A stretch of 64,000 nucleotides of DNA, from positions 9,168 to 73,167 of IMG/VR virus record IMGVR_UViG_3300045974_000100; one strand, written 5' to 3'. Made by a program: the position numbers and the translations under genes. Origin of the DNA: a virus. The notes below the pieces were generated by a model. That model saw only the letters and a list, made by a program, of their open reading frames with translations. It did not search any database and had not been told where the DNA came from. Positions 18,683-36,535 of this stretch are shown in pieces (the first letter of the stretch is position 1; the number at the start of each line of letters is the position of its first letter).

Positions 18683-18684
18683 TT

Positions 18685-19492: not shown

Positions 19493-20617
19493 GTGGGTGA
19501 CTTCGGTAGCGACGCTCTTGTGGGTAAGTCGATGAAGACTGCCTACAAGACGGGCAGGGCATCCCGCGAACTGGTGGACACCCTTGAACGGTGGTCGCCG
19601 TCTAGGACTGGTTTCGGGTTGGACAAGCCAGGTCCGATGCCGCGTCGTGAGAAGGTCGCGTACCGGGTGGGCTACAAGCAGCCTGAGATGGAGAACGCGA
19701 AGCATAAGGCTGAACCGCTTGCTCTTCCTGCGGCCGCTGTAGGTGCTGGTGGTCTTCTCGTCGCCGCAGAGTATGACCGGGCGAAGAAGCGTCAACGTCG
19801 TGTGTCTAAGGGCGACTTGGGCGAGATGCGTGAGTGGTTGCCGAAGATCTACAGCCACGGCAAGACCATCCGTCGTGTGGATGCGGCGATGGACACGTCC
19901 AGGGGTGCTGAGAAGTTCATGGACGCTAAGAAGCAGCCCACGCTTCGCCGCAAGGCCAAGACTCACGCCGCCAACGCCGCTTACCGTCTTGGCTATCGTG
20001 AACCTGAGGTCAAGATCGGGGCTGCCGCAACTGCCTCTGGTGGCGCTATGGTCGGCGGTCTGACCGCTGTTAACCATGTGTGGCCCAAGGATGCCCACAA
20101 AGAGTCACTGGTGGGTAAAGCGTGGAATCAAACGGACTACGGGATGCCTCCGTCGGCTCACCCGATCGGCGACCGGATCACTCCGAGCAATGCTGTCTTG
20201 GGTGGTGCTGCTGGGGCGGCGGCTGTGTCGGCGCGGTCTTTCAGCAATGCCCGCAACATGGACAACACGCTGATGGACCGGCACGAACTGAACCAACGGG
20301 GCCTGGACTCGGCGAAGTTGAAGCGTCAGGCTGCACAGAAGGACGTCGACTATGTGCATCGCGGCCGGTCAGTGACCAAGCCGTTGAAGCCGACGAAGTA
20401 TCGGACGTTGCGAGCCGACCAGGGCATGTCTCGAGCGATGATCGACGAGGGTCGGGCAGCGGGTCGGGTGCGTCAGTCGTACACGGCACTGGGCCGGGCG
20501 GACAAGTTGGCCTCGCATGCGCGTGGTGCGGGCGCGTTAGGTGCAGTGGGCGCTGTCGGCCTCGGCTACCTGGGTATGAAGATGAAGTCTCGCCAAAATA
20601 GTCAGGTGCAGTACTGA
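19493..20617 (+). CDS. Basic three-module putative head-cargo polyprotein
   Basis: GGAGG RBS + GTG; LVGK|S, VSK|G and LVGK|A delimit modules that each end in a Gly/Ala hydrophobic helix and a charged or basic tail; TGATG-coupled to portal. Confidence 0.7.
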   Translation: MGDFGSDALVGKSMKTAYKTGRASRELVDTLERWSPSRTGFGLDKPGPMPRREKVAYRVGYKQPEMENAKHKAEPLALPAAAVGAGGLLVAAEYDRAKKRQRRVSKGDLGEMREWLPKIYSHGKTIRRVDAAMDTSRGAEKFMDAKKQPTLRRKAKTHAANAAYRLGYREPEVKIGAAATASGGAMVGGLTAVNHVWPKDAHKESLVGKAWNQTDYGMPPSAHPIGDRITPSNAVLGGAAGAAAVSARSFSNARNMDNTLMDRHELNQRGLDSAKLKRQAAQKDVDYVHRGRSVTKPLKPTKYRTLRADQGMSRAMIDEGRAAGRVRQSYTALGRADKLASHARGAGALGAVGAVGLGYLGMKMKSRQNSQVQY

Positions 20618-22320
20618 TGACTGAAATGACCGGTGGTCGGGCTCTGGTCCTCAACAACCCTCCGCAAGGTTTGGGTGCTGGTGAGGAGCAGGCCCTCGAT
20701 GAGGCGTTGAAAACGTCGCCTGACATCGAACTGGGTCTGTCCGGTCTGAAGCGGTACGGCGGCATCGTCGACGAAGAGTTCCTGCCGCAGTTGCGCGGGT
20801 CGCTCAAGGCGATTCAGATCTACCGGGAGATGTCGGACAACGACCCCATCATCGGGTCGGCTCTGTTCGCCATCAACAATCTGATCCGCAACGTGGACTG
20901 GCGTGTTGAGCCGTCCGGTAAGGACAAGGAGTCCGCGGACGCGGCGAAGTTCGTCGAAGAGTGCATGGAGGACATGGCCTCTCCGTGGGGTGACTTCATC
21001 ATGGAGGTGCTGTCGTGCCTGCCGTATGGATTCGCGTGGCACGAGATCGTCTACAAGAAGCGTGACGGCCTGTACGCCAAGGATGGCGCGCACCGGAGCA
21101 AGTTCACTGACGGCAAGATCGGCTGGCGCAAGATGCCGTTGCGCTCCCAGGACACCTGGCTGCGGTGGATCTTCGAGGACAACGGTGACGTGAAGGCGTT
21201 CGTCCAGTTGGCCCCTCCGACGTTCAAGACGACGTACATCCCGATCGAGAAGTCGTTGCTGTTCCGCTACAAGACGTTCAAGGGCAACCCTGAAGGTGTC
21301 TCGATGCTGCGCCAGGCCTACCGGCCGTGGTTTATGAAGAAGCGCATCGAAGAGTTCGAAGCCATCGGTGTGGAACGTGACTTGGCTGGTTTGCCTGTCA
21401 TCAAGGTGCCGGCGAAGTACTTGAAGGCGAAGTCGGGCACGGACGAGTACAAGGCTGTGCAGGGTTTCACGAAGATGGCGAAGTCGTTGCGCCGTGGCGA
21501 GTCCGAGGGTGTTGTGTTCCCGTTGGAGTTCGACCAGGACTCGAAGCAGCCCATGTTCTCGATCGAACTGTTGGGGTCTCCTGGTGGCCGCCAGTTCAAC
21601 ACGAACGAGATCATCCAACGCTATGAGGAGCGCATCCTTCAGACGATGCTCGCTGACTGGCTTCTGGTGGGCCATGACGGCGGCACCGGCTCGTATTCGA
21701 TGCACGTGGACAAGACCGGCATCTTCCGGACGGCGTTGAACTCGATCACGCAGATGATCGCTGATGTGCTCAACCGTCACGCCATTCCGCGGCTGTTCGA
21801 GTTGAACGGATGGCGCCCGGAGTCGTTGCCGAAGATCGTCCCGTCTGACGTTGACGCCCCTGACATCACCCAGTTGTCGCAGTTCATGTCCCAGATGGCC
21901 GGTATCGGCTTGAACTGGTTCCCGGACGCCGATCTGGAGAACATGCTGCGCAAGGCGGCCCGTCTGCCGGTCCTGGACGAGGACGAGATGGAACGCCGGC
22001 GCATGTTGCAGCAGAAAGCGGAGTCGACGCAGTTCGCTCAGGCCAACCTCGAGTATGTGGACTCTCGTTTGCAGCTCGCGCAGGCCCTTGGTGCAGGTAT
22101 GCCCTCGGATCAGGCCGCCCAAGCGGTGCAGTCGGGCCGTCAGCAGGACATGCAGCAGGAGCAGGGCCAGATCTCGGCTCAGCAGCAGGAGCAGTCGGCT
22201 CAGGCCGGTCATCAACGTCAACTGGAGTCCGCCGAGCATTCCTCGAAGTTGGCGATCTCGTCGGGGAAGGACAAGAAGCCGGCGGGTGGTGGGAAGAGTG
22301 GCGGGTCTTCCAAGACGTGA
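20617..22320 (+). CDS. Portal protein (Mu gp29/DUF935-like)
   Basis: ELGLSGL...YREMSDNDPIIG, YGFAWHEIVYK, GNPEGVSMLRQAY, GVERDLAGLP, IPRLFELNG; Q-rich C-terminal extension. Confidence 0.9.
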   Translation: MTEMTGGRALVLNNPPQGLGAGEEQALDEALKTSPDIELGLSGLKRYGGIVDEEFLPQLRGSLKAIQIYREMSDNDPIIGSALFAINNLIRNVDWRVEPSGKDKESADAAKFVEECMEDMASPWGDFIMEVLSCLPYGFAWHEIVYKKRDGLYAKDGAHRSKFTDGKIGWRKMPLRSQDTWLRWIFEDNGDVKAFVQLAPPTFKTTYIPIEKSLLFRYKTFKGNPEGVSMLRQAYRPWFMKKRIEEFEAIGVERDLAGLPVIKVPAKYLKAKSGTDEYKAVQGFTKMAKSLRRGESEGVVFPLEFDQDSKQPMFSIELLGSPGGRQFNTNEIIQRYEERILQTMLADWLLVGHDGGTGSYSMHVDKTGIFRTALNSITQMIADVLNRHAIPRLFELNGWRPESLPKIVPSDVDAPDITQLSQFMSQMAGIGLNWFPDADLENMLRKAARLPVLDEDEMERRRMLQQKAESTQFAQANLEYVDSRLQLAQALGAGMPSDQAAQAVQSGRQQDMQQEQGQISAQQQEQSAQAGHQRQLESAEHSSKLAISSGKDKKPAGGGKSGGSSKT

Positions 22321-22558
22321 CGTTCTTCGTTTCGCGCACGGCATGGTGTTGCAGCAGATCCAGCGCGAACAGGGCAATGTTGACGAACTGTTCCACCTGT
22401 ACCTACAGGAAAGCGCGAAGTCGGGGTGGCCCGTGCAGGTGGCGGTCTTCAACATCGTCCGGGCGTTGAGTGCGGTGGGCGCGAAACTCGCCGAATCCGT
22501 GGACGATGAGGTTGTGAGCAGTCTGACTGTGAGCCTGATTGGGGATGACCGTGACTGA
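22298..22558 (+). CDS. Hypothetical protein
   Basis: GTG at 22298 fills the gap between portal and the next gene; helical composition. Confidence 0.55.
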   Translation: MAGLPRRDVLRFAHGMVLQQIQREQGNVDELFHLYLQESAKSGWPVQVAVFNIVRALSAVGAKLAESVDDEVVSSLTVSLIGDDRD

Positions 22559-23813
22559 GCAGATGCCGGAACGGGCTTCACGCCGTAACGCTGCCACTCG
22601 TGCAGCTGCGGGTGGGGCCTTGTTTGGTTTGGGGTCAGCCACGCACTCTCTGGTTCGTTCTGATGTGGACCGTGTGTCGGGTTCGAAGGGTTGGGCGGGC
22701 GCCGGCAAGGATTCTGGCCATGTTCTGTCAGTCGGTCGGCGTAAGTTGGTCGATCACGGCCTTGCAGCCAAGCGAGCCAAGGAAGTGTTCCTGAACCCGG
22801 CTCACATCGGTGGGGGCATGTTGGGTCGGGCGGCCCAGATCACGGGCGCTGGCCTTGCTCTGATGGGCGCGAAGGGCATTGTGGCGCCGTCTGAGAAGAA
22901 CGCCAGCAAGTTGTCGATGCATAACGAGATCGTCCGGCCGATGATCAACCACGCCACTCCCATTGACCCGGAGAAGATGGAAGCCCGGCTGCGTCGCCGT
23001 CAACCGGTGGCTAAGCGTCTTCCGGAGTCTGAGTGGAACGATCTGCAGCGCCGTCGTCGGCGGCAGCGGAAGATCGCGTTGACTTCTGGCACGTTGGGTG
23101 TGAGTGCTCTGGCGTTGCGTGGTCCGGACGCGGTGAAGTTCGCCGTCCGCCACAACCCAGAGAAGCTGAAGATGATCACTCCCGCGGTGAAGCACTCTCA
23201 GCACGCCTCAAACCTTCTGGGTACTGGTTCGATCGGTATCGGCTCGATGGGTGCGTTCAACTCGGCGAAGATGGCCCACCTCGAGCACGAGCACGACAAC
23301 GAGTTGCAGCGTCTGTCCAACATGGCTTCGTCGGCTGTCCGTAAGGACGCCTGGTTGGACAAGTACCGTGACCGGATCTCTCCGTCGGCTGAGCACGGAT
23401 ACAAGCATCTGAAGGGTGGTCGCAATGAAGCCCGAGGTACTGCCGTGGGAAGTGGCCTCTTGTCGGCAGGGTCGGGTGCGGCCGCGATCGGAGCGCTTCG
23501 TCGTGGAAACAAGGTCGACGGCGCCATGCTCTCCGCTGCGGCTCTGTCTTCCGGCATTGCCACGTATCAGCAGGGCAAGAAGGCTCATACCTGGAACAAG
23601 AAGTTGGGCAAGATCAAGGCCAAGGGTGAAGAACGTGCCGCTCAAGGTATCTACGGCAAGGACCGTGAGGTAGCGAAGGCGTTCGGACTGATTCGACCCC
23701 CGAAGCCACCGAAGTTGGGGCCGTCGTCGATCCGTCGTGCCACCCTTAGACGGGGTGCTTCGGGGGCTATGGTCAACGTGAAGGCTGCGCCTGTGTCTGG
23801 AGGACTCCGGTGA
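22545..23813 (+). CDS. Basic multi-module putative head-cargo polyprotein
   Basis: VAK|R, VRK|D and VAK|A delimit modules with paired Gly/Ala hydrophobic helices. Confidence 0.7.
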   Translation: MTVTEQMPERASRRNAATRAAAGGALFGLGSATHSLVRSDVDRVSGSKGWAGAGKDSGHVLSVGRRKLVDHGLAAKRAKEVFLNPAHIGGGMLGRAAQITGAGLALMGAKGIVAPSEKNASKLSMHNEIVRPMINHATPIDPEKMEARLRRRQPVAKRLPESEWNDLQRRRRRQRKIALTSGTLGVSALALRGPDAVKFAVRHNPEKLKMITPAVKHSQHASNLLGTGSIGIGSMGAFNSAKMAHLEHEHDNELQRLSNMASSAVRKDAWLDKYRDRISPSAEHGYKHLKGGRNEARGTAVGSGLLSAGSGAAAIGALRRGNKVDGAMLSAAALSSGIATYQQGKKAHTWNKKLGKIKAKGEERAAQGIYGKDREVAKAFGLIRPPKPPKLGPSSIRRATLRRGASGAMVNVKAAPVSGGLR

Positions 23814-26800
23814 CGACAAACGCACGACTCCTTGAGGTCATCCGTAAGCACGGACGCCAGGACCCGGATGCGGGCTGCCAACTCATCGACCAGGCGCTCA
23901 TCTCGTACATGGATGACCTGGAGAAGTCGATGGGTCAGGATTTGGCTGACCTGCGCCTGGCTGCGGCCGGTGAGGCCATTTCCATCGGTAAGCGTGCGCT
24001 GGGCCGCGAATATGTGGAGTCGATCGCGAAGGGTGTGTACCCGGACGACGTTGACATGCTGCAACGCGCCCAGTGGATCGCTGACATTGAGCAGGCGCTG
24101 CTTGTGGCGAAGGCCGGTAACCCGTTCGGGCCTGGTTCTGGCACATCTACGGGTTCTGATGATGTGGAGAACTGGCAGGACGGCTCTCACCGTCGCGTCG
24201 TTCGTAACCGGTTCGGCCGGTTCGCCCGGTCCATCAGCGACAAGGGCGCCAACCCGTGGTTCGGCCCGCATGCTCGCCGTTCCCCTCGGATCTTGACTGA
24301 CGCCACCATCGGTGAGGGCAAAGAGGCCAAGTACAAGGATTCGCTGTCACCTGAGGACAAGGCGCAAGCCTCGGTTCACCAGGGCCAGTGGAACCACGTC
24401 AACGATCTGATGCAGGAGTTCCTCGACTCGTTCGGGACGAACAAGGGTGTCAACGCGATCGTCACTTTGCGCGGCGAGGACGGCCGGGACAAGTATTGGG
24501 AACTCCCGATGGAGGGTGTGGAGCGCGGCAAGCAACTGCCGAAGCACTACGACTGGCCGTTGGGCGACAAGGCTGTCCAGATCGAGTTCGTTCCATCTGC
24601 GGACGCCAACGAGAACGAGATGAAGCGCCTGAACGCGTTCGAGAACATGAACCTCATGGGTATGCCTGGCTATGCCCGTATGGCCTCGGTGGACCCGAAG
24701 CAGTGGTCGAAGTTGGCGGACACGTTCACGGACAAGAACAAGGCCAACCAGTGGGACGAGAACGGCCGTTTGGGCCAGTTCATGGGCCGTACTGCGGCGA
24801 TCACAGACGTGTTGCAGGCGTCGGGGTTCAACAACAAGTACACGGGCCTCGCAGGACTTGTAGGGTCGCTCGGCCCAGATGCCGCGAAGGTGCTGGACCC
24901 GTACGTGCGCCAGGCCGCCTACCGTTACCGCGGCACTGAGACCACGCCGTCTTCGCAGTTGCGTAGCGAATTGGCCACTCCTGCGGCTCACACCATGGAC
25001 GAGAACGAGGTGTTGGCTGAGCAGGCCCGCGCCACTGAGTCTGTAAGGACTGCGCGTCCGGGCGGTTTGCACCCTGTTGATGGTGCGATCGCGTTGGCGT
25101 CGAAGAACCGTGAGGAGATGACTCCGGACCAGTTCAACATGCGTGTCCGAGCCAACCTTGCGGGTGGTTTCCTGGCTGGGAAGTTGCCGAAGGACCTGGC
25201 GACCGCTGAACTGTCACGCCGTTCGGGCCACATCCTGCCCAGTCAGGGCGTGTTGCTCGACGACAAGGGCAAGATCGTCTCCCAGTCGGTCGGATACGCC
25301 GATGACCACTACTTGCCGTTCGACCTCAAGAACCTCTCCCGTCTGCGCGGGGGCCAATACGTCCGGACGCGTGTTCAGGGAGGGCTGACGGGAGAGGACA
25401 TCTACACGGCGGTGCAGACAGGAGCCCGTAAGGCTTCAGTGGTCTCGTCGTCGGGCTATTTCTCGCTCGAGTTCGCCCCTGATTTCCGTGGCGGCCGCGC
25501 GAACAGCGACAAAGCACGCCAAATGTATGACCGGTACTTGAAGATCCTTCAGGCCGTCGACGAGTCGGGCATGTACGTCCGCGACATCGACCCGTTGAAG
25601 AGGGAGCAACTGCGGTCCCGCGCGATCGACATCGCGAACGGCGACAAGGACATGTTCAAGCGCGAGTTTGAGCGTCTCGTCGACGAGGAGCGCATGAGTT
25701 CGGGCCGGGTGGAGGAAGGCGACCTCGACACGTTGCACGAAGAGGTTGTGCGGGATCTGTCTGCGGGTGGGAAGCAGGCACGTCCGGCTGACATCGCTGA
25801 CGAGTTTGAGCGTCGGGTGGAGGAGAAGCGCAACCTGCAGGCGTCGGAGTTGAAGTTGAACGCTGAAGGGTATGCGTTGGCGTTGCACACGTTGCAGCAG
25901 CAGTACCCGTACTTCATTCGGGCGATCGAGTTCCACGACCTCAAGGGCGCCGGCGGTTTCCTCAACGCTTTGGGTGTGCCTGGGAACGTGCCGGCGAACC
26001 GTCACGCCAAGGACATGGGTCGGGTGCGTCGCGGGGATCTGCGTCCGGACCAGGTCGGGTTCAAGCCGAAGGAAAGCAGCGAGCAGGTCCGTGAATACAG
26101 CGCCCCAGCCGGTGCTGCGCCGAAGCCTGCCGCTATGGAGGGTGAAGACACCGCGGAGGAGGCCTCTAAGCCGACCGACGTGGTGAAGCCGAACGCTCCG
26201 AAGATGCCTACGGGCCGGTTCAGCCAGATCATCGACCAGTCTCGTCCTTCCCTGGACAACCAGAAGGGCCAGACGTTGGGTGCGTTCTTTGACGCCTGCG
26301 CGTTGGCCGGCACGAGCAAGTACGAGGAGCGTTTGGGGCTGGGATCGTCCAGTTTCGACTCTCAGACCACGAACTTGGCTCGCGTCACCTGGTTGATGGC
26401 TCATAACAAGGATGACTCGATGGCGGTCCTGAATGGGCCGAACGGTGGGGAAGCGGTCGCTGCGTTGGGTGACGCGGAAGCGGTGAAGTCCGCATGGCAG
26501 GCCGCATTGGGCTTGTCAGCGAACCCGTCACTTCAGGGCTCGGATGAAGACCTCGAGACGACAATTCTGGGGTCCAACAAGCGCAGCGTCGTGTCCGACC
26601 GGATCGCTGAAATCGCTGCCCGTGCGTCCGATCTACTGTTCGTCACCTCTGGTCCTGGTCCGTTCACGCCTCCGCGTGGTGACGTGTTCGCTGCTGATGC
26701 GCGTGCCCAGTTGCCGTCGCAGGTTCAGTCGTTGACGAGTTACGAGCAACTGTTGGCATGGGCTGATAGTGACAAGAAGGGCGCGAACGAGGTTCAGTCA

Positions 26801-27313
26801 CGCGCGAAGCAGTTGATGTCTACTGCGCACGGTCCGTCGTTGACGGGTGCTTCTCGTGCGGCTCAGGAGCAGTTGAACTTGCTCAAGGCAATCAAGACTG
26901 CTCGTCGTGAATGGTCGCGTCGTTCCGATAAAGAGCGCACAACGAACGCATTCCAGCAGGCCGTGGCCAATGCTTACGGCGCTGGGTTCAAGACGAACAT
27001 GCTCAGCGGCTTTTTGACCGCGTACAAGCCGAACGAACTCACTGATGATGTCCTGCGGACGGAAGCTGAAGACATTCAGTCCGGTTGGACGTTCCTCACC
27101 GCGCAGCGCACCTTGAACCTCATGGACGCCAGGTCGGCTGACTGGGTGGATCGCGTGCTGTCTGGAGGTGGTGGTGCGGGCCCAAAAGCGTGGCCGGCCC
27201 CGGATCACAGCCTGGCGGCGTATCAGGTGGGCAAGTCGTCCTCGCCCCGACGGGTCGTCATCTTGCCGAAGGATCATCCGGTCAGCAAAGCGGTCCAGGC
27301 CAGACACATGTAG
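23810..27313 (+). CDS. Large putative internal head protein
   Basis: 1167 aa; GGAGG RBS; LEK|S and VAK|A sites then RNRFGRF; central JAB-like region; C-terminal VGK|S and VSK|A. Confidence 0.8.
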   Translation: MTTNARLLEVIRKHGRQDPDAGCQLIDQALISYMDDLEKSMGQDLADLRLAAAGEAISIGKRALGREYVESIAKGVYPDDVDMLQRAQWIADIEQALLVAKAGNPFGPGSGTSTGSDDVENWQDGSHRRVVRNRFGRFARSISDKGANPWFGPHARRSPRILTDATIGEGKEAKYKDSLSPEDKAQASVHQGQWNHVNDLMQEFLDSFGTNKGVNAIVTLRGEDGRDKYWELPMEGVERGKQLPKHYDWPLGDKAVQIEFVPSADANENEMKRLNAFENMNLMGMPGYARMASVDPKQWSKLADTFTDKNKANQWDENGRLGQFMGRTAAITDVLQASGFNNKYTGLAGLVGSLGPDAAKVLDPYVRQAAYRYRGTETTPSSQLRSELATPAAHTMDENEVLAEQARATESVRTARPGGLHPVDGAIALASKNREEMTPDQFNMRVRANLAGGFLAGKLPKDLATAELSRRSGHILPSQGVLLDDKGKIVSQSVGYADDHYLPFDLKNLSRLRGGQYVRTRVQGGLTGEDIYTAVQTGARKASVVSSSGYFSLEFAPDFRGGRANSDKARQMYDRYLKILQAVDESGMYVRDIDPLKREQLRSRAIDIANGDKDMFKREFERLVDEERMSSGRVEEGDLDTLHEEVVRDLSAGGKQARPADIADEFERRVEEKRNLQASELKLNAEGYALALHTLQQQYPYFIRAIEFHDLKGAGGFLNALGVPGNVPANRHAKDMGRVRRGDLRPDQVGFKPKESSEQVREYSAPAGAAPKPAAMEGEDTAEEASKPTDVVKPNAPKMPTGRFSQIIDQSRPSLDNQKGQTLGAFFDACALAGTSKYEERLGLGSSSFDSQTTNLARVTWLMAHNKDDSMAVLNGPNGGEAVAALGDAEAVKSAWQAALGLSANPSLQGSDEDLETTILGSNKRSVVSDRIAEIAARASDLLFVTSGPGPFTPPRGDVFAADARAQLPSQVQSLTSYEQLLAWADSDKKGANEVQSRAKQLMSTAHGPSLTGASRAAQEQLNLLKAIKTARREWSRRSDKERTTNAFQQAVANAYGAGFKTNMLSGFLTAYKPNELTDDVLRTEAEDIQSGWTFLTAQRTLNLMDARSADWVDRVLSGGGGAGPKAWPAPDHSLAAYQVGKSSSPRRVVILPKDHPVSKAVQARHM
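27164..27187 (+). promoter_or_regulatory. Candidate -1 programmed frameshift signal
   Basis: GGAGGTG (27164-27170), 10-nt spacer, then heptamer C CCA AAA (27181-27187) in the frame of the 1167-aa ORF; the -1 frame is the AAA ORF. Confidence 0.65.
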
Positions 27314-28158: not shown

Positions 28159-30860
28159 GGTGGTGGGATGACCCGTCAACAGCGCGCACCGTCCTTGGTG
28201 TCGTGGACGATTCTGACGTCGGCCAAGGGGTGGGTACGGCCGTTCTCGGCTATCACGCTCTCGCTATGGGTGCTCTCAAACCTTTGGCTGCGGCTACTCT
28301 CGTCGACTCGGGCCAGGTTCGTAACGCTCTCGCCCATGTGGATCTAGAGCCGGTCAAAGAGGCCATGGCGATGGCACTGTCGCATGCTGTGGATGATCCG
28401 GAGTTGATCGCTGAACGGTTCGTCAACGGCATGCACGAGTCGTCGTCTGCTCTCACGACGCGCCTGGTCGACGTGTGGACGAACTCGAAGATGGCATGGC
28501 CGCAGGCAATCGAACGCGCCGCTGAGGTTCACGGTGTCCCTCCGGAGTTCCTGGGCACTTACCCGGTGGACGCGAAGTTGCCGATGTTCCCGGAGTCTGT
28601 GCGCCGTGACAAGGCTGACCGTGTCCTCATGTCGTTCGCCGGCAGCTTGTCGAGCATTCCGGACGTGCCGGCTGTCTTGGCGAAGTCCTACCAGTTCGAA
28701 GAGGACCATCCGCGGGGTGAAGGTGGGAAGTTCCGCACTAAGGAGGAGCAGGAGAGGGACGCCCGTAAGGCCAAGCGGATCAAACGCATGAACCGGATGA
28801 ACGCGGTCACAGCGCAGGCTCAGCAGAAGCGCACCACGCAACGGGTGAAGGTGGAACGCGCCGAACAGGAGCAAGCCAACCAGGCCGAGCAGATGCGCCA
28901 GTTGATGGCGTTGCAGCCGACCCGTGCAGCGTTGCAAGAGGAACTGGGCATGGTGCCGCTCAAGCGCCAGTCCGGTCTGCAGGGGCGCCAATCTCAGCCG
29001 AAGGTGCAAGGTAAGGGCCAGGACGGCCCGTCACCGTACCCGGAGATCAGCGACGCCCTACTCAAGCGGTACCCCGGTGACTATCCCTCTGCGGCGATCG
29101 CTTCGGACAAGGTGTTCTTCCTCATTCCGAATGCTGTGTCGTCGATCATCGACAATGAGTTCAACGGCACACCGCTGTCGTGGTGGAACTTGGCTGAAGC
29201 GGCCGGTGCTGCCCCTCATGCGGTGCGGAAGTTCAACCCGATGTCGGAAAACGAGTTCAACACGTTCGTCCGGAACAAGCTGCTGAACAGCACCGAGTAC
29301 CAGGCTGCAGTGAACAAACTCATCTCTGTGGGTAGTTCGGGTGAGACGGGCCGTATTGGGAGCGCGGAGTACCAGGCGGCGTTGGACAACGTCTCGAGGG
29401 CCGCCCAGGTCGTCATCGACAACGCTCCGGAGTTCCGTGAGTACACGGTGGGGTGGACGCCTGGTGACGAGTTCCTCATCCATGACGCGAACATGTCATC
29501 ACCGGTGCCTGAGAAGTGGCTGCCGGCGGAGGGCGCCAAGTACACACCTCTTCCCACGGTGACTTCTGGCAGTGGTGTGAAGGCTGAGGTGTTCGTCGAT
29601 CTCCCTGGGTTGAAGGGAACGCCGCACAAGCAACGCCTCCAGGTGCATTTCCCGGCTACTCAGGAGTTCGGCGCTGGCCAAATGTACGGCGGTGGCATCA
29701 CCAGTGGGCCTCACGTAGCGGTGGAGTTCGGCAAGTCTGGTGAGTGGGAGGAACAGGAGCATCCTCGTGGGGATCGTGGCCTATTCACGGACAAGCCAGT
29801 GAGCCGCAGAGACGTCCGGGCGCGTCGGTTTATGGCGATCCAGCAGCAAACCAAGCAACGTCGGTCTCGTGATGTGCGTCAGGAAACTGTTCGCGCGCAG
29901 CAAGAGGCCCCAGCCGTCGCAGCGGAGCGCTCGAAGCTTGTGGATCTGTTCGGTGCACGGGAACAGCCCCTTGAGCGTCGTCAGTCCGGCCTTCAGGGCC
30001 GTCAACGTCGTGAGTCGCTGAGTGGGTTGCAGGCTCCGTTGCCTCGTCCGAAGGCCACTCCGCATGTGTTGGACGGCATGTTGGGCTTCTATACGCCTGA
30101 TTTCCTCCCCGACATCGCGTTCATTGACCCGAAAGGCGCCAAACCAGGTGACATCTGGGACAACGAGGCAGGCTTTGATGCCAACGAACCGGATGCGATC
30201 AACCCACACATGGAGCCGGTCGCGAACTTCAGCGACATCGGGGTGGATACCGGCAGTGGGGCATCAAAGTCGATCATCATCAAGGTCGACAAGGGGTCGT
30301 GGTTCTCCAACACAGTCCTGTCGAACGCTCACCGGGACCAGGCGCAGACACCTGAGCAGGCCAACACGTCAGGGAACGCCGCCTACAAGAAGATCTTGGA
30401 CTACATCCAGAACCGTCACGAGATGTTGTCGGCTGTGTTCGATGACCAGGAAGTCGCGCAGGGTGAAGCCGACCGGATGAACTTGTTCGACACGAAGGCC
30501 GGCCGTGACTCTTACGAATGGGTCGACGAGGACGGCACTGACGTCGGGTCTGAGCACTACCAGGTGATCCCGGCGCCGGTCGGTGGCAAGGAACGGTTCC
30601 GCATCGTCCCCGCTTACGCCGATGACCGTGAGGGCTCTGTTGTCCGCAACTCGCTGAACTTGCTCACTGGCACTCCGCAGGCGTGGAAAGAGTTCGCCCG
30701 GACGGGTCAGGCCCGCATCGAACGCGTCAACACGTCCCACAACACCTATGACTGGGATGCGAACGATCTGATGTACGGCGGGGACAAGATCCTTTCGACT
30801 GAAGTGAACACCGATGTGGCGTTGTTCCGCATCAGCCCTGTTACCGGTGAACGGCGTTGA
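28155..30860 (+). CDS. Large putative internal head protein with two duplicated leader modules
   Basis: LAK|SYQFEEDHPRGEGGKF and FGK|SGEWEEQEHPRGDRGLF, each followed by a basic helix, RQSGLQGRQ and an unrelated domain. Confidence 0.8.
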   Translation: MRWWDDPSTARTVLGVVDDSDVGQGVGTAVLGYHALAMGALKPLAAATLVDSGQVRNALAHVDLEPVKEAMAMALSHAVDDPELIAERFVNGMHESSSALTTRLVDVWTNSKMAWPQAIERAAEVHGVPPEFLGTYPVDAKLPMFPESVRRDKADRVLMSFAGSLSSIPDVPAVLAKSYQFEEDHPRGEGGKFRTKEEQERDARKAKRIKRMNRMNAVTAQAQQKRTTQRVKVERAEQEQANQAEQMRQLMALQPTRAALQEELGMVPLKRQSGLQGRQSQPKVQGKGQDGPSPYPEISDALLKRYPGDYPSAAIASDKVFFLIPNAVSSIIDNEFNGTPLSWWNLAEAAGAAPHAVRKFNPMSENEFNTFVRNKLLNSTEYQAAVNKLISVGSSGETGRIGSAEYQAALDNVSRAAQVVIDNAPEFREYTVGWTPGDEFLIHDANMSSPVPEKWLPAEGAKYTPLPTVTSGSGVKAEVFVDLPGLKGTPHKQRLQVHFPATQEFGAGQMYGGGITSGPHVAVEFGKSGEWEEQEHPRGDRGLFTDKPVSRRDVRARRFMAIQQQTKQRRSRDVRQETVRAQQEAPAVAAERSKLVDLFGAREQPLERRQSGLQGRQRRESLSGLQAPLPRPKATPHVLDGMLGFYTPDFLPDIAFIDPKGAKPGDIWDNEAGFDANEPDAINPHMEPVANFSDIGVDTGSGASKSIIIKVDKGSWFSNTVLSNAHRDQAQTPEQANTSGNAAYKKILDYIQNRHEMLSAVFDDQEVAQGEADRMNLFDTKAGRDSYEWVDEDGTDVGSEHYQVIPAPVGGKERFRIVPAYADDREGSVVRNSLNLLTGTPQAWKEFARTGQARIERVNTSHNTYDWDANDLMYGGDKILSTEVNTDVALFRISPVTGERR

Positions 30861-30893
30861 AATGCGCCATGATGAAGCGATTAGGAGGTTGTC

Positions 30894-31661
30894 GTGGCTG
30901 ACTCAATGACGGTCGTCAAGTCCCTAAACGAGATTGACCCCGGTTTCCAGCGCCTGTGCAAGACGATGTTCGGCGACGGGGTCGACACGGAGCGTCTGTG
31001 GACGTACCTCTACGGGGTCGACGGCATCACCAAGATGGCTCCTCCGGACGCGCATGTGCTTTCTTCCGGCGCGAAGCAGGGCGGTAAGCGCATCTTGGCC
31101 GCGGTGAAGTCCCGTCCCGGCATTGCGCTGGAGTCGTCGTCTGCTGCTGTGCTCGCTGACCGGTCCATTGCTCGGCGTAAGCGCAAGCCACAGCCCAAGA
31201 TGTACTCGCCGTTCGACTACGACACGCCGACGTTCGTCGCTAAGGGTGTCATCACTGGCACTGACCCGGTCCGCCAGCAGGTTTTTGGCTGGGCGTCGAT
31301 CTCTGAGCACAACGGTGTCCTGATTGAGGACCGCCAGGGCGACATCATCATGGAGCCGGAACTGGAGAAGGCGGCCTACAAGTACGTGGTCGACTCGCGT
31401 GTGGGTGGCGACGAGCATCGCCGTGTCCCGGTGCAGAAGTTCGATGACGGCATGATTCCCCTTCACGCCTCTGACTTGATCGAGTCGATGGTGTTCACGA
31501 AGGAGAAGATCGCCAAGCTGCATCTTCCGGAGTCCACTCCGATCGGCTGGTGGGTGGGGTTCCAGGTCAACGACAACCAGGTGTGGGACGACGTCGTCAC
31601 CGGTAAGCGCACCGGTTTCAGCATCCATGGCAAGGGTCGCCGTATCCCGGTCGAGGCCTGA
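30894..31661 (+). CDS. Prohead (capsid maturation) serine protease, XkdF-like
   Basis: QVFGWAS, DRQGDII..ELEKAAY, GGDEH, ESMVFT, GWWVGF, W..V..G..TGFSIHG; AGGAGG RBS. Confidence 0.88.
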   Translation: MADSMTVVKSLNEIDPGFQRLCKTMFGDGVDTERLWTYLYGVDGITKMAPPDAHVLSSGAKQGGKRILAAVKSRPGIALESSSAAVLADRSIARRKRKPQPKMYSPFDYDTPTFVAKGVITGTDPVRQQVFGWASISEHNGVLIEDRQGDIIMEPELEKAAYKYVVDSRVGGDEHRRVPVQKFDDGMIPLHASDLIESMVFTKEKIAKLHLPESTPIGWWVGFQVNDNQVWDDVVTGKRTGFSIHGKGRRIPVEA

Positions 31662-31662
31662 C

Positions 31663-31887
31663 GTGGAGTTCGGGTGGGCCTTGGAGGTCCTCAAAGAGGG
31701 TGGTCGTGTTGCCCGTGTGGGGTGGAACGGCCCGAATCAGTGGATCGCCATGCAGCACCCGGACGAGCATTCGAAGATGACGTTGCGCTACATCTACATC
31801 CACACGGTTCAGGGTGACCTTGTTCCGTGGCTGGCTAGTCAGACTGATTTGATCGCTGAGGACTGGGTGGAGGTGCCTGATGAGTGA
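31663..31887 (+). CDS. tad2: DUF2829 / Thoeris anti-defence Tad2-like sponge protein
   Basis: FGWALEVLKEGGRVARVGWNG...YIYIHT..G..VPWLASQTDLIAEDW matches the DUF2829/Tad2 signature; GAGG + GTG start. Confidence 0.85.
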   Translation: MEFGWALEVLKEGGRVARVGWNGPNQWIAMQHPDEHSKMTLRYIYIHTVQGDLVPWLASQTDLIAEDWVEVPDE

Positions 31888-32185
31888 ACGCCCCCAGGTG
31901 TCTGCACTGATCGGTAAGGCCTCCCGTTTCGTTCCGGCTGACGCCCAACCGTTGGGTCCGCTCGACTTCGGGCATCCCATCCCTCAGATCGGCCACCGTC
32001 CCATTGATCCTGTGTTGATGTCGTCTGCGGCTCGGATGATGGTCGACGCGGAGGCTGCAGCGTTTGGAAGACGCGTAAGCCGTAAGCGCCGTCGTGAACT
32101 GCAGGGCGCCTACACCGACTTCGCTGGTGGACGCCAGTGGCTATACGCCCCGTTGAACTCCGCGATCTCAGGGAACAACCGATGA
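31880..32185 (+). CDS. Small head-cluster protein with an N-terminal LIGK|A site
   Basis: GGAGG RBS; overlaps both neighbours. Confidence 0.65.
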   Translation: MSERPQVSALIGKASRFVPADAQPLGPLDFGHPIPQIGHRPIDPVLMSSAARMMVDAEAAAFGRRVSRKRRRELQGAYTDFAGGRQWLYAPLNSAISGNNR

Positions 32186-34488
32186 GCAGCCCAGTCCGGC
32201 AGTACAAGCAGCCCTCGAAGGCTGAGACCGCTGTCGGCATTGGTCTGAACACTGTCGCGTTGGCTGGTGGTGTGTCGGGGTTGTCCCAGGCCACGGACCA
32301 TTTCCGTCGTCGCGTGTTCAACATCCCGATCGATGCCCGCTCCACTGAGGAGAAGGCCGCTGCACGCCTGGCGAAGGTGCCGTCGAAGCCGTTGAAGGCC
32401 GCTGTAAGACCGATTTTGGAGCATCCTCGTGGTGCTGCGATTGGTCTTGCTGGTGGTGCGATGGGGTTGCATGCCACTGAATTGGTGGGAGATGTGTTGG
32501 CGCGGCGGTCGTTCCGTCGTCAGCAGCAGGCCAACAAGGACAGTGTGGGTAAGGCGTTGACGCCGTTTGCCTCGGTGGCGCCGAAGGACAAGCACATCTT
32601 CCCGACGAAGCCGAAGAAGGTGGGTGTGCAGGGCGCTGGTCTTGCCTCCAAGCCCACGTCGGTGGCGTCGAATCCTCAGAGTCAGAACGGTCAAGTGTTG
32701 AAGGGGTTTGTGATGAGCGACTTGGGTAACGAGACCCCGTTCGGCTCCCGTTCGTTGGCTGCCGAGGACGTCTCCAAGGGCATGTTGGGTGTCGCACTTG
32801 CGGGTGCGAAGTCGTTGCGTGGCGGTGCGAACATCATCGGCCGGCAGCTGCGGTCTGAGGGTGGCGCCAAGACGGTGGGCAACCAGTTGGCCCAGGGTTT
32901 CCGCGGCCGTACGGCAGGAATGTCGCGTAACGCGGAGATGGGCGAGAAGTTGGGTCAGCGGGTGCAGGGTGTGAATCCTCGTTCGCCGTTCCCGACGCAT
33001 GCTGGTCCGACGTCTCCGATGCGTTCTCCGATCATGCCGGCGTTCCGGATCGGCTACCGCGCTCCTGAGATCGCTGGGGCTGCAGGTCTTGGTTTGGGTG
33101 CTGGTGCGTTGGGTGAGGCACACGGCCGTCATGTGTCTAAAGCTGCCATGGGACCTCGTACCGCTGCTCGAGCGCAGGAACTGGCTGGCAAACTCGCTGG
33201 CCGTCGCGCTTTCACGCCGAAGGAAAAGACTGTTCTCGCGGGCAAACAGCATCGCGCTCAGGGACTGGTTGAGCGTTCCCATGAAACGGCTGAGCAGTCC
33301 GCTGACTGGCGCAAGTTCGGCGGGGAACAGGACCGTGAGGACCGCGGGTTCAACAAGGCTCGCAACTTCGTTGAGCGGTTCGACTGGGATCAGAAGACTG
33401 GGGCGCGTCGCAAGGCCATTCCGGGCTACAAGACTTCGCCTCCTCGTCAGCGCGCACTGACTGGCGACAACAAGACTTACCTGGGCATGCCGAATAACCC
33501 TGGTACGGGTACCCGCCAGGGTTTGGGCGCTGGTCGTGGTGGCGAAACGGTCGACTACGAGTACACGGGCAATCGTCGCGTGCGGAAGTCCACTGACCGT
33601 GACCGTCGCGCTGGCAAGGGCTTCCAACAGTTGGGTGCCGCTGAATTGGCCGCTGCCCCGGTTGCTGGTGGCGCTGGTGCTGTCGGTTTGCACTCCATGA
33701 AGCGCAACATCGGTCAGCAGAAGCACTGGGAAGAGGCTTCCACTCACATGAACGGTGAGGCGAAGATCAACGCCCTGGTGAACTCGTCCAAGCATGAACT
33801 CAAGGCCTACAAGATGGCCCAGTTGGGTGGTCGTGGGACAGCGATCGGTGCTGGTTTGGCTGCGTTCGGCGCCACTGACCTGGCGATCGGCCACCACTTG
33901 AAGAACCGCGGCCGCAAGCCTGTCGCCAAGGGTATGAAGCCCATCCGCAACGTGGGAGCGCCATTCCTTCGCCGTTATGCCGGACGCAACAACCCGGTGA
34001 AGGTCACGGAGATCATGGCGCGTTCCAAGGGCAACCTGGCTCTTCGCGCGCATGACGCCACTCACGGCCTCAATCCGTCTGGTGACGCGCTTCAGCGGTC
34101 CAACCCGTTCCTTCCTGGCGCTACGCATCAGCGAGGGAAGTTGGTCATGGACATGAACGGAGCCGCCGGTCGTAACGCTGACCGTGCTGTGTCCAAGGCT
34201 GAACGCCGTTTCGACGCCGAGTCTGACCGTCAACGCCGCGTCGGTATCTCCGCTGGCGCTGGTGTCGCAGGTGGCGCAGGTCTGGGTTACGCAGCCCACC
34301 ACCACTTGAAGGGTTCCGGCGCCATCAACTACGACAAGGGCCGGCTGTTGCTCAACGGTCGTAAAGCTGCCGGTACGCATCGTGGCCGCATCGGTTTGGG
34401 CCTCGCAGCCGGTTCAGCGATCGCCAGTTCTGCCGGTATCGGTGCCTACTCGTATGGCACGTCTGAGCGGAACCGCCGATGGAACTGA
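32182..34488 (+). CDS. Basic multi-module putative head-cargo polyprotein
   Basis: ATGA-coupled; VGK|A, VLK|G, VSK|G, VSK|A, VRK|S, VAK|G and VSK|A delimit about eight segments, several with glycine-zipper helices. Confidence 0.75.
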   Translation: MSSPVRQYKQPSKAETAVGIGLNTVALAGGVSGLSQATDHFRRRVFNIPIDARSTEEKAAARLAKVPSKPLKAAVRPILEHPRGAAIGLAGGAMGLHATELVGDVLARRSFRRQQQANKDSVGKALTPFASVAPKDKHIFPTKPKKVGVQGAGLASKPTSVASNPQSQNGQVLKGFVMSDLGNETPFGSRSLAAEDVSKGMLGVALAGAKSLRGGANIIGRQLRSEGGAKTVGNQLAQGFRGRTAGMSRNAEMGEKLGQRVQGVNPRSPFPTHAGPTSPMRSPIMPAFRIGYRAPEIAGAAGLGLGAGALGEAHGRHVSKAAMGPRTAARAQELAGKLAGRRAFTPKEKTVLAGKQHRAQGLVERSHETAEQSADWRKFGGEQDREDRGFNKARNFVERFDWDQKTGARRKAIPGYKTSPPRQRALTGDNKTYLGMPNNPGTGTRQGLGAGRGGETVDYEYTGNRRVRKSTDRDRRAGKGFQQLGAAELAAAPVAGGAGAVGLHSMKRNIGQQKHWEEASTHMNGEAKINALVNSSKHELKAYKMAQLGGRGTAIGAGLAAFGATDLAIGHHLKNRGRKPVAKGMKPIRNVGAPFLRRYAGRNNPVKVTEIMARSKGNLALRAHDATHGLNPSGDALQRSNPFLPGATHQRGKLVMDMNGAAGRNADRAVSKAERRFDAESDRQRRVGISAGAGVAGGAGLGYAAHHHLKGSGAINYDKGRLLLNGRKAAGTHRGRIGLGLAAGSAIASSAGIGAYSYGTSERNRRWN

Positions 34489-34988
34489 GGCTTGCTTCTA
34501 CGGGCGTGGCCAAGGGTCTTCCTGTGGCGCTGCGTAGCGTCAGCGAGAGCACTCTGTACGGTGAACAACGTCGCCTGGCGCATCGCAGTGGTCGGGTGGC
34601 TGCTCGCGGTGTGGCGTTGGCGCGTGAGAACTACCGCAAGTCCCCTGACATGGCGGCGCTGCTGCATCAGGCAAGTAAGAAGGCGGGACAAGCTGGTGTC
34701 CAGGCGCGGCGAGATGCGCGGTCTCTGGTCGGCAAGGCTGATGTCCCTGACGAGCCGGAACGTCGGCCGTTCTCAATACCTAACCCGAAGAAGAAGCCGA
34801 ACGGTTCTGTGGCATCGATTGAGCAGGCTGTGAAGCGCTCGGGTAAAGGACGCCGTGTGGCGTTAATCGCGATTCCCGTTGGGGTTGGTGCTGCCGGTGC
34901 TGGCGCCTTTGGTTTACATGCTGCGACACGCAGTCGAACCAAAGTTGCTAGTGGGGCGCGTAACTCCTCAAGTTCGGTCAGGATGTGA
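34479..34988 (+). CDS. Basic two-module putative head-cargo protein
   Basis: VAK|G and VGK|A; C-terminal VALIAIPVGVGAAGAGAFGL + basic tail. Confidence 0.65.
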   Translation: MELRLASTGVAKGLPVALRSVSESTLYGEQRRLAHRSGRVAARGVALARENYRKSPDMAALLHQASKKAGQAGVQARRDARSLVGKADVPDEPERRPFSIPNPKKKPNGSVASIEQAVKRSGKGRRVALIAIPVGVGAAGAGAFGLHAATRSRTKVASGARNSSSSVRM

Positions 34989-36109
34989 CTGTTATGAGTA
35001 CACGGCAGCGTTACGCACTGGTCGACATGGATCTCGATGAGGTGTCCACGGTCGGCATCCCAGCTAACCAGTTGGGGATGATTGTCTTGGCCAAAAGTGC
35101 CGGCAGCGGCCAAGACCTGATTTCCGAGGAGGGTTCCATGCCGGGTCAAGAGTTGTATGACGCTGAAGGCAGGGTCGTTGACCCGGAGGCGCTGGAAGTT
35201 GGCGACTACGTGTATGACGGTCCAGATGATGAAGCCGAAGAGTTCCAGGTTGTTCCTGTGGACGAAGACGGTTACATCCTCGAAGACGAACTCGAGCTTG
35301 TCGGCAAGGCTGGCGAACTTGAGATGGGTGGACGCGCTGCACGGTATGGCGCGAAGGCCTCGAAGGCTCGCCGTGCGTTGCAGGCTCAGGGTGATCGTGC
35401 CCGTGCCGGCGCTGGCCGCGCCAAGAACTACATGGTCGAGCACCGCCCCACTGCAAGTCCTGGTGAGGCTGGCGAGAAGTGGCACACAGGTGGCCGTGAA
35501 GGTTACCGCCTGACTTCCGAGGGCAAGCGAGTCGCTGGCTATGCCGGTGCGGGCGCTGGTGCTCTCGGTGCTGCTGGTGGTGGCGGTTACGCTGCTGGCC
35601 GTCGTGGCCATGTGGGCAAGTCGTTCGCCCAGTCGATCCTCGACGATGTGTCCAAGGCCGTCACCACTGACGACCAGATCAGCATCGTTGCCAAGGCGCT
35701 GCAGCAGTCCGAGAACGAGCGCGAGTTGCTCATTCGGAAGTCTGCGCAGCTCGAGGCTCGCCTGAACGAAGCCGAAGACGCTGCGACGTTGAACTGGGCG
35801 ATCTCCAAGGCTGCCGAGTACAACTTGCCGATCGACGCCGACGAGTTCGGTCCGATCCTCAAGCGCCTGGTCGAGAACATGCCTGAGCGCGACATGTACG
35901 TGCTCGACGAACTGTTCAAGTCCATCGGTGCCACATTCTTCGAGGAACTGGGTTACAACGGCGGTTCACCGGAGTCGTCTTACGACTACGTGGCCGCCGC
36001 CGCTCAGGAACTCGTCGCCAAGACAGGTGCTTCGGACGCGCAGGCCATCACGGCCATGTACAACGCGAACCCGGACGCCTACGACGCCTACCTCGCGGAA
36101 GGACGGTAA
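34985..36109 (+). CDS. Scaffolding protein (with protease-like N-terminal strand and an embedded basic module)
   Basis: Lies immediately before the decoration and capsid genes; LDEVSTVGIPAN N-terminus; helical C-terminus ending NPDAYDAYLAE; many xxK|S/A sites. Confidence 0.8.
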   Translation: MTVMSTRQRYALVDMDLDEVSTVGIPANQLGMIVLAKSAGSGQDLISEEGSMPGQELYDAEGRVVDPEALEVGDYVYDGPDDEAEEFQVVPVDEDGYILEDELELVGKAGELEMGGRAARYGAKASKARRALQAQGDRARAGAGRAKNYMVEHRPTASPGEAGEKWHTGGREGYRLTSEGKRVAGYAGAGAGALGAAGGGGYAAGRRGHVGKSFAQSILDDVSKAVTTDDQISIVAKALQQSENERELLIRKSAQLEARLNEAEDAATLNWAISKAAEYNLPIDADEFGPILKRLVENMPERDMYVLDELFKSIGATFFEELGYNGGSPESSYDYVAAAAQELVAKTGASDAQAITAMYNANPDAYDAYLAEGR

Positions 36110-36115
36110 CGGCTC

Positions 36116-36535
36116 ATGGCTTCCGACGAGCGCGTTGTCGCGTACACCCTCCAGGCTGACTCCAGCATCGGCATTTACACGGGTCCTCCCGGTATGCCGG
36201 GTTCGGCCAGCCCCAACAACGGCAAGGCGTACTGCTTTGTGAAGATCACTGGCACCCGCCAGGTGGGTTTGCAGAGCGTCGCTGGTGCTGCATCGATCGG
36301 CGTGCTGTACAGCAAGCCCCAGGCAACCGGTGATCCTGCTGCGGTAGCGGTCTCCGGCATCGTCAAGGTCCTGACAGACGCGACAGCAACGATCGTGGCC
36401 GGTTCGCCGATCACCTCGAATGCTGCCGGTCTTGCCAAGGTCGGTGTTCCGGGAACGGACGCCATCCAGGGCTATGCCTTGCAGGGGTCGACGACGACGA
36501 GCCAACTCATCTCCGTCCTCCTCCGTCAGCCGTAA
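36116..36535 (+). CDS. Capsid decoration/cement protein (DUF2190-like)
   Basis: SIGVLYSKP..G..AAVAVSGIVKV...I.AGSPITSNAAGLA...GYAL. Confidence 0.8.
   Translation: MASDERVVAYTLQADSSIGIYTGPPGMPGSASPNNGKAYCFVKITGTRQVGLQSVAGAASIGVLYSKPQATGDPAAVAVSGIVKVLTDATATIVAGSPITSNAAGLAKVGVPGTDAIQGYALQGSTTTSQLISVLLRQP

Follow-up and report, generated by a model that had tools for sequence, protein, structure and literature searches.

Why should the head module of a phage encode a series of strongly basic, glycine- and alanine-rich proteins, punctuated again and again by a tripeptide of the form V-x-K? The question is raised by the IMG/VR virus record IMGVR_UViG_3300045974_000100 (73,167 bases, with direct terminal repeats), of which we analyzed bases 9168-73167, a stretch of 64,000 nucleotides hereafter called the window. 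An earlier note on its head module had read the open reading frames (ORFs) around the portal, protease and scaffold genes as precursors cut by the prohead protease. Two parts of an answer are well supported by our comparisons: V/I-x-K followed by A, S or G appears to act as the cleavage site of the XkdF-type prohead protease encoded in the same module, and the basic ORFs appear to be modular, with modules gained or lost at or beside this motif in the scaffold, g22539 and g31880 families. The wider reading, which we consider probable, is that the motif is the site of this protease and that the basic proteins enter the procapsid and are divided there into pieces of about 75-165 amino acids (aa), most likely retained with the DNA. 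Cleavage, packaging, retention and any activity of the fragments are what we infer from the sequences compared below.

All head genes lie on the plus strand, in the layout given by the earlier note, and follow the order TerL, three small ORFs, g19493, a Mu-type portal, g22539, g23810, an AAA+ ATPase, g28155, the XkdF-type protease, a Tad2-like gene, g31880, g32137, g34479, the scaffold, a cement protein and an E-type major capsid protein (MCP); coordinates are collected in Table 1. The head ORFs contain 25 copies of V-[GSAR]-K, of which 24 remain without the Walker A motif of the ATPase (whose VGK belongs to VGKT only), close to the 23 or so counted by eye before; the background, 16,030 aa from the 75 other ORFs no shorter than 80 aa, contains nine. 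Three copies lie in the tape measure, as had been noted, none followed by S, A or G. With the stricter expression V[GSAR]K[SAG], 20 matches were found in seven head-module ORFs (g19493 3, g22539 1, g23810 3, protease 1, g32137 6, g34479 2 and scaffold 4) against about 2.2 expected from per-protein shuffles, and none in the 16,030 aa of other genes, so that the enrichment of the head cluster over the rest of the proteome, predicted beforehand, is borne out. The strict expression is absent from the portal, the MCP, the cement protein and all genes outside the head module. The variant sites listed earlier (LAK↓S, FGK↓S, IGK↓A, ISK↓A and IRK↓S; the arrow marks the predicted cut) are all present.

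In a six-frame control, 18 strict motifs fell in gene frames, all of them in head ORFs, and five in 38,599 aa of non-gene frames. Two of these five belong to g34479, in place of which the crude gene caller used in this control, based on GC content at third codon positions (GC3), had put an antisense ORF; the remainder is three in about 38,400 aa, and the motif is enriched in the plus frame only. Since the codons differ among the sites, the signal lies at the protein level, which rules out a DNA-level repeat as its source. An artefact of GC composition is likewise ruled out by relatives of low GC content that keep the same features. Widening P3 to V, I or L gave 25 sites in eight ORFs, with V 20, I 4 and L 1 at P3, G 8, A 8, S 7 and R 2 at P2, A 13, S 6 and G 6 at P1', and Leu at P4 in seven. 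Looked at from the other side, 31 of the 73 K-[SAG] dipeptides in the presumed substrate ORFs are preceded by V, I or L at P3, compared with 38 of 177 in the background. The position of the sites is also peculiar: the motif ends short leaders of 12-13 aa in g19493 (12 aa, VGK↓S, with more sites after aa 106 and 209), g34479 (12 aa, VAK↓G, with a second site, VGK↓A, at aa 84-86) and g31880, and the scaffold has a site after aa 37, while a site within the first 40 aa or so was found in only one of 92 background genes.

The protease itself carries the motif at the boundary between its two parts. PF14550 (Peptidase_S78_2) matches aa 127-251 with 51.9 bits against a cut-off of 24 (E 9.8e-14), and a VAK↓G lies 10 residues upstream of this match, dividing a basic, poorly modelled pro-region from the catalytic domain. 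This is the single strict site of the pro-region (aa 115-117), so that the motif is repeated, as had been claimed of both proteins, in the scaffold with its nine sites but not in the pro-region. His175, Ser243, D146 and D150 are invariant in nine protease sequences, which makes His175 and Ser243 candidate catalytic residues. The AlphaFold model of the protease has a mean predicted local distance difference test (pLDDT) score of 59.7, with a better core at aa 111-251, and among 48,161 chains its best structural match was T4 gp21 (5jbl_A; Z 7.4, root-mean-square deviation 3.4 Å, 117 residues aligned; next Z 5.1). As Z below 8 may mean just a common arrangement, a gp21-like fold is suggestive but not secure. 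The protease gene sits between the portal gene and the scaffold and MCP genes, an order also kept in relatives. In the limited set of literature searched, we found no described cleavage motif for XkdF-type/PF14550 proteases, nor glycine-zipper-like virion modules of the kind discussed here.

A search with the portal retrieved 80 IMG/VR loci, and one with the g22539 family four closer loci (L091-L094). These four have portals 62-65% identical to that of the window phage, a GC content of 43-55% (the window has about 61%) and the whole gene order g22539, g23810, ATPase, g28155, protease, basic proteins and scaffold. Scaffolds of relatives have 6-7 [VIL][GSA]K[SAGT] sites each, against 0.14-0.28 expected, and head ORFs of relatives begin with similar short leaders of 8-15 aa. 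In an alignment of eight g23810-family sequences (21-32% identity), [IV][AS]K↓[GAS] occupies the column of the window's IAK↓G (aa 72-74) in six, and the C-terminal sites of the family recur in L092 and L094; to judge from its four sites, g23810 probably gives up peptides at both ends. In the g32137 family, the site that precedes a conserved C-terminal module has K at P1 and V or I at P3 in six of six sequences and A at P1' in five. The VAK↓A of g22539 (aa 378-380) and the 44-aa C-terminal tail after it are conserved in the homologues P0005-P0007. The scaffolds of three more distant cultured phages, KPP23, ValentiniPuff and Kovu, have 3-5 [LVI]AK↓[AS] sites. In 11 loci that contain both portal and MCP, 75 sites were counted between these two genes against 26.8 expected, and 10 against 17.0 in the portal, the MCP and flanking ORFs, a count made on the plus strand only by a longest-ORF rule, with some ORFs spurious in the GC-rich L086 and with L023 and L024 near-identical. 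The window phage is more heavily punctuated with the motif than its relatives. It is this combination of enrichment, location at domain boundaries and at the ends of N-terminal leaders, and conserved position in relatives that leads us to regard the motif as the protease site.

The same sites coincide with the edges of insertions and deletions. The window scaffold is about 100 aa longer than those of the relatives G008, L086, L087 and L088, and the extra piece, aa 109-212, includes a Gly-rich run of 23 aa. Its right edge falls exactly at a VGK↓S that aligns with the single VGK↓S of G008, and its left edge lies within about 12 aa of a VGK↓A. A comparable insert of about 77 aa begins directly after VEK↓A in the scaffold of G006. 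Among the members of the g22539 family, the one site of the others is duplicated in P0006 as VAK↓S and VRK↓A, with about 300 inserted residues between the two copies. A ParB-like domain is inserted in P0005 and P0007, where VSK and a following K or R form its C-terminal edge; it appears from this that the carrier family can host an enzymatic passenger. The insert of P0007, in the middle of the carrier, is annotated as a ParB-like nuclease/NTPase domain (PF02195, precomputed). In four phages the 88-aa domain typical of g31880 starts right after a site, and the part in front of it measures 13, 13, 76 (a Gly/Ala module) or 225 aa.

A further unit, consisting of a Gly/Ala helix, the sequence ANRVLSRE and a basic tail ending in VxK↓, forms the N-terminus of the protease in L086, L087, L008 and L009; the protease of L088 has the helix and the 'ANR' part, with the canonical site after it absent. 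An ANRVLSRE-type unit opens the basic protein downstream of the protease in L091 and L092, and a degenerate copy is present at aa 74-139 of g32137. Gain or loss of modules at the motif, set as a test beforehand, was accordingly found in the scaffold, g22539 and g31880 families. Of the ORFs in which the earlier note had placed sites at module boundaries, g22539 has a single canonical site.

The presumed cargo is unusual in composition. Together, g19493, g22539, g32137 and g34479 amount to 1,750 aa, with isoelectric points (pI) of 10.3-11.7, 16-19% K+R and 25-28% G+A; Cys is absent, and the net charges add up to about +163. The sites divide them into predicted fragments of 75-165 aa, each charged +4 to +14 net, apart from the short leaders and the 380-aa bulk and 44-aa C-terminal tail of g22539; in g32137, six V[GSAR]K[SAG] sites and an AGK↓G would give fragments of 75-149 aa. 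The modules are alike in composition and short motifs, and full-length paralogy is not demonstrable, since all-against-all BLAST of the cargo proteins gave only short and weak internal similarities. A motif shared by two of them, R-x-G-Y-K/R-x-P-E ahead of a Gly/Ala run, has two copies in g19493 and a single one in g32137; the rest of the genome and the loci have none.

Homologues of these proteins are scarce. g19493 matched only itself among 1.84 billion representatives, as did g32137 in a search of 5.8 billion proteins, and homologue searches with g32137, g19493 and g31880 returned the queries alone; an additional match in these searches, P0003, was discarded as a spurious repeat protein. 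The first and the C-terminal module of g32137 are nevertheless conserved with syntenic proteins of relatives. In ESM Atlas, g32137 reached only viral hypothetical clusters, at 0.82, a lead at most, and the single-sequence AlphaFold model of g19493 (pLDDT 45) is uninformative. In Pfam, no domain was found at E <= 10 in g19493, g22539, g32137 or g34479, the sub-threshold matches to small transmembrane-hairpin families not being used as evidence. The IMG gene calls are shorter at the N-terminus for g19493 (309 aa, starting at aa 66) and g22539 (355 aa). The longer ORFs are more likely correct, because the repeated motif of g19493 spans the shorter start and the conserved N-terminus of the g22539 homologues lies upstream of the shorter start of g22539. 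Opposite g32137 runs an antisense ORF of 756 aa (32110-34380, minus strand) that is nearly as gene-like in codon-position GC as g32137; no homologue of it was found among the fetched loci, and it lacks the motif.

The course of events that would follow from these features can be outlined. Substrates from the head module (the acidic scaffold with its basic module, the basic g19493, g22539, g32137 and g34479, and g31880, g23810 and g28155) would assemble together in the procapsid by way of their N-terminal leaders, the shared unit of Gly/Ala helix and basic tail, or charge pairing with the acidic scaffold. The protease would release itself by a cut between aa 117 and 118, and would then cut the scaffold into small acidic peptides, which would exit the capsid, and the basic proteins into fragments of about 75-165 aa. 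As DNA replaced the acidic peptides, the basic fragments would stay with it as counter-ions, and they may leave with it at infection. For the g22539 carrier family at least, analogy with packaged ParB-like proteins, as treated in PMC5512222, argues for delivery to the host.

Several observations weigh against this account. g22539 has just one canonical site, and g34479 has an atypically low GC3 (0.58) and no homologue found in the relatives. Enrichment is weak in the more distant loci, and in G006, which is 90% complete, the contrast is modest (15 sites in the head against 5.8 expected, 14 elsewhere against 9.6) and comes mainly from the scaffold (6 against 0.28). Relatives are less strict at P2 and P1' (VEK↓R, IVK↓A and VFK↓A; P2 is S, V, N, F, G or E in the g32137 family), and our strict expression therefore both misses and over-defines sites. 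Tripeptides of the LAK or ISK type could arise structurally in A/K/L-rich scaffold helices, for which residue shuffles do not control. The gp21 match lies below the secure threshold and comes from a model of low pLDDT, and Foldseek found nothing at E <= 0.001 with the protease model in the PDB. Finally, the phage collection contains no cultured representative of the clade.

An extension of the same account, which we put forward tentatively, is that of a cassette system: cationic modules of about 80-160 aa, bounded by the protease site, would insert into the scaffold, the protease pro-region or dedicated polyprotein ORFs next to the portal gene, and maturation would free, within the capsid, a dozen or more peptides that neutralize the DNA in the manner of adenovirus core peptides, exit with it to act on the host envelope, or both.

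Alternatively, the basic proteins might be disposable assembly helpers, cationic partners or a core of the acidic scaffold that are cut and then expelled before or while the DNA is packaged, so that none would remain in the virion and none would act at infection. Such a role would suit the basic module that travels with scaffold function in the window phage and G006 and is absent from four relatives, the complementary pI values of scaffolds (4.1-4.5) and cargo (about 11), the spread of sites along whole proteins rather than in an N-terminal propeptide alone, and the general expectation, stated in PMC10052503, that propeptides exit the head. We find it unlikely, because fragments of 75-165 aa are large for capsid pores, polycations would be expected to bind the incoming DNA, and a ParB-like nuclease/NTPase domain in homologues of g22539 makes sense only if it is delivered.

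It is more doubtful still that V-x-K is a structural or docking motif of co-assembling proteins, such as a helix feature or a contact with capsid or portal, and not a cleavage site. LAK↓A/S is indeed repeated in the helical scaffolds of KPP23, ValentiniPuff and Kovu, helical periodicity is lost in residue shuffles, and P2 is variable. Helix packing, however, does not typically place a motif at the junction of pro-region and catalytic domain, at the ends of leaders of 12-13 aa or at the start of the g31880-family domain, nor does it typically duplicate it on the flanks of inserted modules, an arrangement characteristic of processing sites.

The Gly/Ala runs raise the question of membranes. The basic ORFs could encode membrane proteins of the infected cell, involved in membrane-bound assembly, lysis timing or superinfection exclusion, with the runs as true transmembrane zippers; they would then not be contents of the capsid. 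The hydrophobic Gly/Ala-rich helices described in the earlier note exist as sequence runs, in that the four basic ORFs contain 17 uncharged runs of 15-25 aa, 16 of them G/A/S-rich, with one further run in the scaffold. Their hydrophobicity is another matter: taking a Kyte-Doolittle (KD) 19-residue mean above 1.6 as the transmembrane-like cut-off, a single run passes it, at aa 127-150 of g34479 (1.86, the only clearly transmembrane-like segment), fifteen lie at 0.69-1.51 and one at -0.31, whereas the adjacent true membrane proteins reach 1.74-2.37. The run in g34479, weak sub-threshold Pfam matches to small transmembrane-hairpin families in relatives, and two genuine membrane proteins encoded just upstream (18323-19164) would fit a membrane role. 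Sixteen of the 17 runs fall short of the genuine segments, no Gly-zipper Pfam family matches the cargo proteins at E <= 10, and membrane proteins would explain neither why the motif is enriched nor why scaffold and protease contain such modules as well, which makes this alternative very improbable. 'Glycine zipper' is a fair description of a pattern but no evidence of membrane insertion. The presence of the same Gly/Ala unit in protease pro-regions and scaffolds suggests a role in procapsid targeting or self-association at least as much as one at the membrane.

That some ORFs, above all g32137 and g34479, are open by chance because the DNA is GC-rich, and are not genes, is scarcely credible: codon-position GC fails to separate g32137 from its antisense ORF, GC3 of g34479 is low and neither has a full-length homologue, but the motif is enriched in the plus frame only and the antisense ORF is unmatched, the C-terminal 99 aa of g32137 align at 37-39% identity with relatives, and syntenic basic proteins exist in relatives with a GC content of 41-55% (G+A 23-32%, at equivalent positions), where long chance ORFs are unlikely, as well as in L086, L087 and L088 (GC 67%, 61% and 41%), which encode a protein of pI about 11 and G+A 21-27% between protease and scaffold, so that counterparts across 41-67% GC mark these ORFs as genes.

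Table 1. Head-module features of the window. Positions count from the first base of the window; the arrow marks the predicted cut.
Feature	Position	Strand	Remarks
TerL	16703-18262	+	
Three small ORFs	18323-19456	+	two with strong transmembrane segments
g19493	19493..20617	+	374 aa, pI 10.3, net charge +32; upstream of portal
Portal, Mu type	20617..22320	+	no strict motif; PF06074 1.5e-34; phrog_113 2e-89
g22539	22539..23813	+	424 aa, pI 11.2, net charge +42; five uncharged Gly/Ala/Ser-rich runs
g23810, conserved head protein	23810..27313	+	1167 aa; sites at aa 72-74, 99-101, 1140-1142 and 1158-1160
AAA+ ATPase	27190..28158	+	overlaps end of g23810, start uncertain; PF00004 3.9e-12; AAA_lid_6
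g28155	28155..30860	+	901 aa, acidic; LAK↓S at aa 175-177, FGK↓S at aa 525-527
Protease pro-region	30894..31244	+	aa 1-117, pI 9.6; C-terminal VAK↓G (aa 115-117); aa 42-111 with pLDDT <50 in the model
Protease catalytic domain, XkdF type	31245..31661	+	PF14550 match
g31880	31880..32185	+	101 aa, basic; 13-aa leader ending in IGK↓A, then conserved domain of about 88 aa
g32137	32137..34488	+	783 aa, pI 11.2, net charge +68; alternative start at 32182 gives 768 aa
g34479	34479..34988	+	169 aa, pI 11.7; fills the gap with overlapping start and stop codons
Scaffolding protein	34985..36109	+	374 aa, pI 4.5; nine [VILA][GSR]K↓[SAT] sites; immediately upstream of cement protein and MCP
Basic Gly-rich scaffold insert	35309..35620	+	aa 109-212, pI 10.7, net charge +11; between VGK↓A and VGK↓S
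Cement or decoration protein	36116-36535	+	motif absent
MCP, E-type	36549-37532	+	no motif, no delta domain

Around the insert, the scaffold keeps a conserved N-terminal stretch of 37 aa and a conserved C-terminal half, its identity to three relatives being 35-36%. Both long head proteins with internal or terminal sites lack recognizable relatives in reference databases: g23810 and g28155 gave no Pfam match and nothing at E <= 1 in a PDB sequence search, and g23810 had no usable match in ESM Atlas. In g28155, a motif consisting of acidic residues followed by H-P-R-G/N-x-x-G-x-F (also written E-x-H-P-R-G-x-x-G-x-F) occurs twice, at 28707 and 29760, each time 5-8 residues past a K↓S site, and three times in each of L092 and L094, in the homologues of g23810 and g28155. 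Head modules do not usually include an ATPase such as the one between g23810 and g28155, which has syntenic counterparts in L091, L092 and L094. In L008 (4028-7834) the g23810 homologue carries it as a C-terminal fusion, an arrangement that suggests joint action of the two proteins.

The two small membrane proteins between the large terminase gene and the first basic ORF (g18323-g18685, 18323-19164, plus strand) have strong transmembrane segments (KD 1.74-2.37), one run in g18323 and four in g18685. The Tad2-like gene (Thoeris anti-defence 2 family; 31627-31887, plus strand; PF11195, 2e-23) lies within the head module, overlaps the 3' end of the protease gene by 35 nucleotides and lacks the protease motif; in the distant relative L022, a Tad2-like ORF follows directly after the portal gene.

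Genes for a Pol III alpha subunit, DnaB helicase, primase, tail tube and 1631-aa tape measure are also present, a set from which we take the virus to be a siphophage. There are weak hints of a host among the Actinomycetota, namely a protein with a DUF732 domain (7e-08; 55450-56154, minus strand), similarity of the portal to those of Arthrobacter phages, and a contig from a metagenome-assembled genome (MAG) of Microlunatus. The DUF732 family is, we assume, typical of mycobacteria and their relatives. A search of genome contigs with g23810 alone gave no match; with the g23810 alignment it gave this contig of Microlunatus sp. and a second MAG contig, from an Acidobacteria bin, both no more than weak hints of a host. 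Searches of the phage collection by tblastn with g32137, g23810 and g22539 yielded zero matches, and with the protease one metagenomic record.

If the proposed processing is true, it gives the cleavage specificity of a widespread and uncharacterized family of prohead proteases, the XkdF type, and it means that a mid-sized siphophage can spend about 17 kb on its head genes, with polycationic internal protein accounting for at least 1,750 aa. Protease sites would then be the seams at which capsid cargo modules are shuffled among scaffold, protease and carrier proteins, and cargo loading and release would become predictable from sequence in metagenomic phages. A design rule for loading foreign peptides into capsids would also follow, in the form of a leader or module and then V-x-K↓A. 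Should the cassette system exist as well, siphophages, in which the tape measure is normally taken to be enough for entry, would have an internal-protein system of a kind not described from them.

Among known systems, one of the nearest in outline is that of T4, whose internal proteins IPI-III and Alt are small, basic and directed to the prohead core, each with a leader of about 10 aa that ends in the motif cut by gp21. The window proteins resemble them in having a short leader ended by a protease motif, and gp21 is the best, if not secure, structural match of the window protease. They differ in the motif itself (V/I-x-K↓A/S/G here, L/I-x-E↓ in T4), in the lack of sequence homology, and in being long, multi-module proteins with internal sites and Gly/Ala runs, in a 73-kb siphophage whose portal is of the Mu type and whose protease is of the XkdF type. 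A cut after Lys with a small P1' residue recalls the processing of capsid proteins in HK97-type systems and, at Lys↓Ser, in Herelleviridae, where the substrate is the N-terminal domain of the capsid protein itself; the window MCP, in contrast, has neither the motif nor a delta domain. The adenovirus core precursors pVII and pX/mu are rich in Arg and Lys, associate with DNA and are trimmed in the capsid by the virion protease at a short consensus, and here the analogy is one of mechanism only, lineage and protease being unrelated. Phage 7-7-1 was discarded as a comparison, the paper on it concerning an unrelated HK97-type myophage.

In the jumbo phage SPN3US, 14 sites in nine substrates have been mapped, 13 of which remove N-terminal propeptides from folded proteins, and cleavage in vitro by recombinant protease of the phiKZ/SPN3US type is feasible (PMC10052503). 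Our system is alike in that one prohead protease (gp175 in phiKZ, gp245 in SPN3US) has many head substrates, with several motif copies per protein, and unlike in that the sites are spread along low-complexity basic proteins, those phages being jumbo myophages with a different protease motif. Polyvalent proteins, as presented by Iyer et al. 2017 (PMC5512222), are made up of several modules, have their genes next to those of virion proteins and are regarded as packaged and delivered; an in-built metallopeptidase is proposed to process them. The ParB-like domain named there is the insert of two g22539 homologues; the window proteins, on the other hand, have no enzymatic domain recognizable in Pfam, and their processing would be carried out by the prohead protease at a repeated motif. 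Altogether, the head module described here follows the logic of the T4, phiKZ/SPN3US and polyvalent-protein cases but differs from them in its protease family, its motif, its polycationic low-complexity cargo, the spread of its sites and its setting in a mid-sized siphophage.

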